From contig JABJLN010000028.1 in assembly GCA_018703365.1 (NCBI GenBank), positions 1 through 23,364 of the forward strand: a stretch of 23,364 bases of DNA, written 5' to 3'. This document shows, piece by piece, positions 1,127 through 1,381 of the stretch (within the stretch, counting starts at the first letter, position 1; each line of letters begins with the position of its first letter). Both the position numbers and the translations under genes were made by a program. The DNA is from Candidatus Falkowbacteria bacterium (GTDB lineage Bacteria > Patescibacteriota > Patescibacteriia > UBA11705 > JABHMO01). The notes under the pieces are model-generated. The model did no database searches and was not told the origin of the DNA. It was given only the letters and a program-made list of their open reading frames with translations.

Positions 1127-1381
1127 TTAATCCCCTGCAATCGAAATCAATTCCCAGGAGCTACCGTCAACTTTGTTAATTTTAACTTTTGCGCCCTCGG
1201 CAACTGTATTTCTACTCAACATCTGTAAATTGAACTCTAAATTTTCAGAACTAATATCTGCACCATGTTCGATCACTGAACCCAAATCAATCAAAATCTT
1301 CTTAACCTGCTTGAGGTTATTTTTTTTCGCTTGTTCCAGCACAAGCTTGTGGATTTTGTCCGCTACATGAAGATCATGCAT
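1127..1381 (-). CDS. HypA-like hydrogenase nickel-incorporation metallochaperone that lacks the Cys4 zinc-finger insertion (84 aa).
   Basis: N-terminal MHD (cf. the HypA MHE Ni-binding motif) aligns along the whole length with the HypA pattern MHE..L....L.L.EQ.A...K.V..I.I.LG......I....L.F......R.T.AEGA...I..V.G...L.SI. Both CxxC pairs of canonical HypA are absent. A 9-bp gap to pgk on the same strand suggests co-transcription. Confidence 0.55.
   Translation of the reverse strand: MHDLHVADKIHKLVLEQAKKNNLKQVKKILIDLGSVIEHGADISSENLEFNLQMLSRNTVAEGAKVKINKVDGSSWELISIAGD

Follow-up and report, generated by a model that had tools for sequence, protein, structure and literature searches.

A HypA-derived single-domain protein without the zinc module, and its linkage to [NiFe]-hydrogenase in Patescibacteria

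Introduction

Can a HypA without its zinc module still deliver nickel, and if so, to which enzyme? HypA is described, in reviews up to 2025-2026, as a two-domain protein with a CxxC zinc site that is stabilising and needed for interactions with partners (PMC13202556, PMC12134894, PMC7055735), and Cys mutants of Helicobacter pylori HypA lose activity (PMC13202556, PMC7055735). Since the zinc site is needed in the HypAs described, activity of a zinc-less form is not self-evident. The question is raised by a short reading frame in 23,364 nt of DNA from a Candidatus Falkowbacteria bacterium (the whole stretch analysed, referred to here as the window), the product of which, termed mini-HypA below, resembles HypA, carries no zinc module and is encoded next to pgk, at a distance from the [NiFe]-hydrogenase genes. 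Databases automatically label some proteins of the mini-HypA family 'HypA', and the gene is therefore not unknown; the zinc-less single-domain architecture nevertheless appears undescribed in the literature searched. That literature, which included few subscription papers, held no account of a zinc-less or short HypA or of hydrogenase maturation in CPR bacteria, and the analysis of CPR 3b hydrogenases within it makes no mention of maturation.

Results

A HypA nickel-binding domain from which the zinc module is missing

1127..1381, minus strand: mini-HypA coding sequence, 84 aa, the HypA Ni-binding domain alone with zero Cys (ORF list, Pfam, AF2)
1367..1381, minus strand: codons of M1-H2-D3-L4-H5, the N-terminal Ni motif as MHD rather than MHE, plus an invariant His5 (direct sequence reading)
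1163..1168, minus strand: codons of D72/G73, the junction without the CxxC...CxxC zinc module (alignment with full-length HypAs; Foldseek)

The mini-hypA reading frame runs from ATG to TAA and encodes 84 aa without Cys. MHD stands at the extreme N-terminus, at the first start codon of the frame, with Asp replacing the canonical Glu. The Pfam HypA profile PF01155 matched residues 1-74 over profile positions 1-70 of 112, with a score of 41.2 bits (E=1.9e-10) that lies above the gathering score of 28.9, so that the profile check proposed in an earlier note on this DNA returned a significant HypA match. The sole PDB match found by phmmer was the HypA of Thermococcus kodakarensis, in an alignment that spans the TVAEGA/TIAEGA block. 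The same note had described an MH[ED] motif, a VAEGA block and an end-to-end alignment with HypA, and each was recovered: the first as MHD, the second as TVAEGA/TIAEGA, and the third as the Pfam match to residues 1-74 together with the last 12 residues on the final strand. The NCBIfam HypA equivalog models TIGR00100, NF001976 and NF003008 matched the N-terminal two-thirds only, and their cut-offs were missed by a wide margin (43 bits vs 146, 41.5 vs 88.1 and 34.8 vs 125). Mini-HypA has the Pfam score, the N-terminal motif, the fold and the hydrogenase linkage of a HypA, and lacks the zinc site and the NCBIfam equivalog scores; we have therefore filed it as a HypA-derived single-domain variant and not as a canonical member. 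This variant most likely works like HypA.

In an alignment of short with full-length HypAs, 30-40 residues were cleanly missing from mini-HypA between ...KINKVD and GSSWELISIAGD, its last 12 residues. These match the final strand of canonical HypA when the zinc module is treated as a deletion. The module is missing in all 70 genomic orthologues, and its absence from the window gene, which had been noted before, is evident both from the zero Cys count and from the clean excision in the alignment. An AlphaFold (AF2) model built on the family alignment (pLDDT 91.4, pTM 0.78) predicted a helix at 5-20, a strand at 26-33, a small hairpin at 37-42, a helix at 45-55 and strands at 65-70 and 76-83. 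When this model was searched against the PDB with Foldseek, the best 14 matches were all HypA chains (TMq 0.67-0.83), including 5aun_A with an rmsd of 1.5 A and 3a43_B with a TMq of 0.83 over 115 columns, in an alignment that crosses the gap left by the Zn domain. The predicted structure thus has the HypA Ni-domain fold, which the earlier note had asked to be compared.

A separately encoded zinc-ribbon protein might supply the module in trans, making mini-HypA one half of a split HypA. Small CxxC ORFs do occur in some clusters, for example that of family c29 (92 aa, CxxC...CxC); however, c29 was present in only 6/71 loci and on the opposite strand, and no Zn-ribbon ORF was conserved across the clusters. 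The C-terminal strand of mini-HypA is, moreover, fused seamlessly, and the model is that of a complete, confident domain, which leaves a split HypA extremely improbable.

Mini-hypA is conserved as a short gene

An identical protein is encoded on 39 contigs of independent assemblies, including the Candidatus Falkowbacteria MAG GCA_018670895.1. A protein search with mini-HypA returned 62 homologues of 48-100% identity, nearly all of 83-90 aa, and a scan of one genome per species located 70 mini-hypA loci, all of them in Patescibacteria-type MAGs, with hosts that include Falkow-, Kuenen-, Buchanan-, Komeili- and Uhrbacteria. The orthologue had 83-87 codons at every one of the 70 loci. When 1.8 billion representative proteins were searched with a profile, 274 matches were obtained, nearly all of them 79-95 aa long; proteins of this length without the Zn motif made up most of the top of the list, which full-length CxxC HypAs entered only from about E=1e-7. 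Selection is given as pN versus pS because synonymous sites are saturated: between the window gene and its closest relatives pN was 0.10-0.28 and pS ~0.8 (saturated). These comparisons indicate that mini-hypA is under purifying selection across about 70 Patescibacteria species.

Could the gene be an artefact or a decaying remnant, such as a hypA with a frameshift or truncation, or an ORF open by chance? Its short length and its failure to reach the NCBIfam equivalog cut-offs would be expected of such a remnant, and a few database relatives do look degenerate (MRD and MQE N-termini; truncated fragments). Conservation has already refuted this reading, and we give it a negligible probability: the same protein recurs on independent contigs, length and motifs are kept in ~70 species, pN is low while synonymous sites are saturated, and there is no space for an extension before pgk. 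A frameshift or a lost Cys tail, raised in the earlier note as a possible undoing of its proposal, was considered separately and excluded. Because the length is conserved (84 aa in the window, 83-87 aa across ~70 species) and the ATG of pgk follows 9 nt past the stop codon, no frameshift could restore a Cys-bearing extension.

Many of the cluster-bearing contigs (L006, L013, L015, L019 and others) are titled 'uncultured Gammaproteobacteria' or 'Saccharibacteria' in public records. On these MAG contigs such titles are probably placeholders or mistaken labels.

The gene follows the hydrogenase large subunit, and its linkage to pgk is dispensable

1..1117, minus strand: pgk (phosphoglycerate kinase), 5' part; the gene leaves the window (translation; Pfam PGK)
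1382..1514, no strand assigned: AT-rich divergent intergenic region of 133 bp with promoter-like sites on both strands
1515..8164, plus strand: five-gene insertion between the large-subunit gene and mini-hypA, comprising four coiled-coil/beta-propeller lipoprotein paralogues and one membrane protein
8225..9502, minus strand: [NiFe]-hydrogenase large subunit (Pfam NiFeSe_Hases E=1.3e-31), ending ...DPCISCATH without an extension; the presumed client of mini-HypA
10535..11302, minus strand: hydrogenase small (delta) subunit (Pfam Oxidored_q6 E=1e-22)
12232..13029, minus strand: group-3b-type diaphorase gamma subunit (FAD, NAD and Fe-S domains, Pfam)
13026..14000, minus strand: group-3b-type diaphorase beta subunit (4Fe-4S dicluster, Pfam)

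In the window, the mini-hypA stop codon is followed after 9 nt by the ATG that opens pgk, as had been reported; a second gene caller places the pgk start 36 nt further on, leaving 45 nt between the two genes. Past pgk, the source contig continues with eno and two iPGM genes (Pfam Enolase, iPGM). The intergenic region upstream of mini-hypA holds promoter-like sites (minus strand 1443..1416, 10/12; plus strand 1437..1465, 11/12; consensus matches only) and probably marks where transcription of a mini-hypA-pgk-eno unit begins in this genome. With these sites, and with no terminator-like site found in the window sequence between mini-hypA and pgk, co-transcription of the two genes is plausible here. 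The large-subunit gene lies 6.8 kb away, in agreement with the distance of about 7 kb given in the earlier note.

ORFs were called and clustered in 71 loci for a comparison of neighbourhoods. The canonical gene order was beta subunit, gamma subunit, (HypC), EamA, DUF6390, small subunit, large subunit, mini-HypA, PGK, SIMPL, enolase, iPGM and iPGM. A [NiFe] large-subunit gene was found upstream of mini-hypA and on the same strand in 67/67 informative loci, defined as those with more than 900 bp of upstream sequence. The gap between the two genes had a median of about 140 bp and was <=176 bp in 35 of the 67, about half being directly adjacent, and the 6843 bp of the window was the largest gap of the set. 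Even a divergent Portnoybacteria variant (93 aa, with a His-rich loop) is encoded directly behind its large-subunit gene. The pgk gene was found downstream of mini-hypA in 54/70 loci, with iPGM in most of those. At least 9 loci whose downstream sequence extends for 3 kb or more (among them L014, L027, L031, L037, L053, L066 and L074) keep the large subunit–mini-HypA pair without pgk or iPGM.

The insertion families c50 and c51 were found only in the window and in two related loci (L013 and L018), where the block is smaller. This distribution marks the 6.8 kb gap of the window as a lineage-specific secondary insertion of five opposite-strand genes, and co-transcription with pgk would plausibly be a derived local state. 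The four lipoprotein-like paralogues of the insertion have 256, 182, 606 and 739 aa and a common coiled-coil module (...LDLVIxKIQPxAxxLVIxD...PLEKLYNE), with a beta-propeller in two of them; the membrane protein has 283 aa.

The position of the gene in the window invites another reading, in which mini-HypA is a metallochaperone shared with, or retargeted to, glycolytic enzymes, possibly with one of the two metal-dependent iPGM paralogues as a client. The 9-nt spacing to pgk with no terminator-like site between, and the presence of pgk and mostly also iPGM at 54 of 70 loci, are compatible with such a role, and H. pylori HypA is known to serve two enzymes, hydrogenase and urease (PMC7055735). 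We nevertheless regard it as very unlikely. The large-subunit link holds in 67/67 loci against 54/70 for pgk, the pair persists where pgk and iPGM are missing, the gap in the window is secondary, and a conserved supercluster of hydrogenase and lower-glycolysis genes explains the presence of pgk better. The comparison across loci indicates that the pgk linkage is common but dispensable, and that mini-HypA belongs to the [NiFe]-hydrogenase and not to glycolysis. The earlier placement of the gene with pgk rather than with the hydrogenase therefore does not hold, and with the large subunit as invariant neighbour recruitment to a new role is not borne out either; of the two alternatives then offered, homology, fold, conservation and linkage favour the naturally minimised Ni chaperone.

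In many Patescibacteria the genes of lower glycolysis (pgk, eno, two iPGM and, upstream at some loci, GAPDH) are joined to the hydrogenase operon in one co-oriented supercluster. Such an arrangement is in keeping with a role of the 3b hydrogenase in recycling NAD(P)H in fermentation.

Other features of the window were recorded alongside. A gene for a PLP-dependent enzyme (9499..10521, minus strand; Pfam PALP E=4e-22) lies between the small- and large-subunit genes and overlaps the start of the latter by 4 nt; its family (c49) occurs in only 3 of the related loci. An SOS-type module (14217..17330, minus strand) stands directly upstream of the hydrogenase operon and is syntenic in the closest relatives (families c41, c26 and c24). 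It comprises LexA (16728..17330), a 154-aa protein with an MCAG start and no Pfam match (16170..16634), a conserved 82-aa ORF (15424..15672) and a DinB/IMS-family polymerase (14217..15434). Further along, a 971-aa homologue of the major vault protein is encoded at 18677..21592 on the minus strand (Pfam MVP_shoulder E=3e-28, Vault repeat E=3.5e-9). The GC content is ~0.48 at this gene compared with ~0.35 in the rest of the window, which suggests its horizontal acquisition.

Maturation genes in the window and in related loci

No other hyp gene was found within the 23,364-nt window, as the earlier note had stated. The statement is a local one, since relatives carry hypC (about 30 related clusters, Pfam E=2e-16), hypF (4 related loci, with a full-length HypF of family c48 in L047, L053 and L074) and, in one locus (L043), HypD (E=2e-123) and a HypE ending in PRIC, together with the Kae1-type half of HypF. 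HypB was detected neither by motif nor by tblastn (E<=0.01) in the window and in 10 kb around 70 CPR genes, ~1.2 Mb in all, with two genuine HypBs, from L079 and L080, as the tblastn queries.

The large subunit ended at the CxxH Ni-ligand motif (SCATH, TCATH and similar) in 67/67 cases, with no cleavable extension. A HycI/HoxW-type endopeptidase step is consequently not expected for these large subunits.

In 5-6 loci the hydrogenase operon includes genes for a CbiM protein (its N-terminus reads MHLPD; E=9e-53) and for a PDGLE-domain protein, the pair lying between the gamma-subunit gene and hypC in L015, L024, L025, L029, L038 and L065. As CbiM is a Ni/Co ECF-type substrate component, this places a nickel importer beside the genes for the chaperone and the enzyme. 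DUF6390 (E=2e-53, 29 loci) and an EamA transporter (33 loci) were also conserved with HypC in the operon, at a site upstream of the small subunit (for example L017 3083..3859 and L056 5854..6765), and neither is present in the window. DUF6390 is a candidate hydrogenase accessory protein.

His5 and a Glu-His-Gly hairpin are candidate additions to the nickel site

1262..1270, minus strand: codons of E38-H39-G40, the tip of a beta-hairpin (invariance; alignment with T. kodakarensis HypA; AF2 hairpin 37-38/41-42)

Invariant residues among 31 aligned members were M1, H2, D3, H5, A7, G34, E38, H39, G40, I43, N47, L48, F50, N51 and I81. E38-H39-G40 is part of a 4-residue insertion relative to T. kodakarensis HypA, and in relatives the same loop is expanded to His-rich tracts such as SHAGHDHHSLH and VHKHEDGEHHH. 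At least one loop His was present in 146/149 zinc-less proteins of the MHD type compared with 13/45 of a second, MHE type (see below), counts that are not phylogenetically independent. The Ni ligands of H. pylori HypA are M1, H2, E3 and D40 (PMC7055735, PMC5557546), and Asp40 of Helicobacter HypA falls in the same loop, after strand 1, that bears the EHG insertion in mini-HypA. In the T. kodakarensis HypAB complex, a distal residue, His98, completes a Ni site of nM affinity (PMC7055735, PMC5557546). Helix 1 and strand 1 are antiparallel neighbours, which puts the loop after strand 1 beside the N-terminus; the placing of His5 and His39 close to the N-terminus is based on this topology and on the Helicobacter precedent. 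By analogy, His5 and Glu38/His39 may augment the N-terminal Ni site, and we consider it about as likely as not that Ni binding involves His5 and the EHG loop.

Mini-HypA could instead act purely as a docking or holding chaperone, which would attach to the immature large subunit at its N-terminal tail and hold the active site open while carrying no Ni; the metal would then come directly or by way of another protein. The HypA Ni domain is indeed bound by the large subunit's N-terminal tail in the HyhL-HypA complex of T. kodakarensis (PMC7055735, PMC12134894), the corresponding surface is retained in mini-HypA, and the tight large-subunit linkage fits such a role equally well. The invariant M1-H2-D3, the added and likewise invariant His5 and His39, and the His-rich loops of relatives are, however, hard to explain without metal binding, and we consider a docking role without nickel unlikely.

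A second zinc-less class occupies the hypA slot of canonical operons

The MHE-type zinc-less HypAs (e.g. P0144, P0183 and P0166) are 80-aa proteins that start with MHE and have neither His5 nor the EHG insertion; 32/45 have no loop His. Their genes are the first (the hypA slot) of hypA-hypB-hypF-hypC-hypD-hypE operons, adjoining hypB, and these operons adjoin group 3d or 3b hydrogenases. One MHE-type gene is followed by a HypC-radical-SAM fusion and then by a 3b hydrogenase with HycI. The fusion, an unusual one for HypC, stands directly after the 80-aa gene (L075 8246..9517, plus strand) and has 423 aa with Pfam HupF_HypC and Radical_SAM matches. By analogy with these proteins in the hypA slot, a zinc-less HypA can fill the HypA role. 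Over the shared 70 residues, 42/45 MHE-type proteins are nearer to full-length HypAs than to the CPR type, suggesting more than one loss or gain of the zinc module.

Like mini-HypA, the MHE type consists of the Ni domain alone, its Zn module missing from the same junction, and it is linked to group 3b/3d hydrogenases. It differs from mini-HypA in keeping MHE, in having neither His5 nor EHG and in standing beside HypB in a hyp operon.

Discussion

The evidence of homology, fold and gene neighbourhood points to mini-HypA as probably the Ni-insertion accessory of the group-3b-type [NiFe]-hydrogenase of the window. It is a single-domain HypA, in which the Ni-binding alpha/beta domain lacks the zinc module and the last beta-strand is joined on directly. 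In the mechanism that we propose, the free N-terminus would bind Ni(II) through the Met1 amine and through the amide and imidazole of His2, with Asp3, and side chains added by the family, His5 and the Glu38-His39 hairpin, may complete the site. Loaded mini-HypA would then dock on the apo large subunit bearing the Fe(CN)2CO from HypCDEF and hand over its Ni; no protease step would be expected to follow, the large subunit being without a C-terminal extension. In the lineage of the window, the five-gene insertion appears to have severed mini-hypA from the hydrogenase operon, so that it now heads a pgk-eno-iPGM unit, a change that would have altered its transcriptional context and not its function.

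A further proposal is that the CPR mini-HypA is a self-sufficient nickel insertase, independent of HypB, in which His5 and Glu38/His39, built into the Ni domain, would by themselves form the high-affinity site for which canonical HypA needs a distal His and a HypB NTPase. We advance this tentatively and think it doubtful. If true, reduced genomes would mature a [NiFe]-hydrogenase without HypB, zinc domain or endopeptidase, and this would be the minimal Ni-delivery system known.

A natural zinc-less family that stays under selection and is tied to the large-subunit gene would mean that the zinc module is dispensable in nature, in a set made up of about 70 Patescibacteria species and a second class in canonical hyp operons. 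Such proteins are ready-made minimal HypAs that can serve to probe the purpose of the zinc domain, and their His5 with the EHG or His-rich loop is a candidate alternative Ni site. They also offer a first point of entry to the maturation of the only hydrogenase of ultra-small CPR bacteria. Finally, a possible mis-annotation is corrected, in that mini-hypA is not to be read as a glycolysis-associated gene.

Among known systems, T. kodakarensis HypA (3A43; 5AUN, HypAB-Ni; 5YXY, HyhL-HypA) is the best match in both sequence and structure (phmmer E=5e-4; Foldseek E about 1e-6, rmsd 1.5-3.2 A). The two proteins have in common the M-H-acidic N-terminus, the alpha-beta-alpha-beta-beta Ni domain, TxAEGA and the final strand, and T. 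kodakarensis HypA likewise serves a group 3b hydrogenase (HyhL). It has 139 aa and a CxxC...CxxC Zn domain, whereas mini-HypA has neither a Zn domain nor Cys. The high-affinity Ni site of the archaeal protein depends on His98, a residue that lies beyond the Ni domain, and takes shape only with the ATPase HypB bound (PMC7055735). Mini-HypA differs in having MHD for MHE and in the addition of His5 and the E-H-G hairpin within the Ni domain itself. H. pylori HypA (2KDX, 6G81) and E. coli HypA/HybF have the same fold as mini-HypA (Foldseek prob 1.0), and the Ni site of H. pylori HypA is built from Met1, His2, the acidic residue 3 and Asp40, the last in a loop that matches the EHG loop of mini-HypA. 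These bacterial HypAs have two domains and carry a Zn(Cys)4 site that is essential or regulatory, in contrast to the single domain of mini-HypA, and they partner with the GTPase HypB (in H. pylori also with UreE). Their genes lie in hyp operons, whereas the mini-hypA family is found directly behind the gene for the hydrogenase large subunit.
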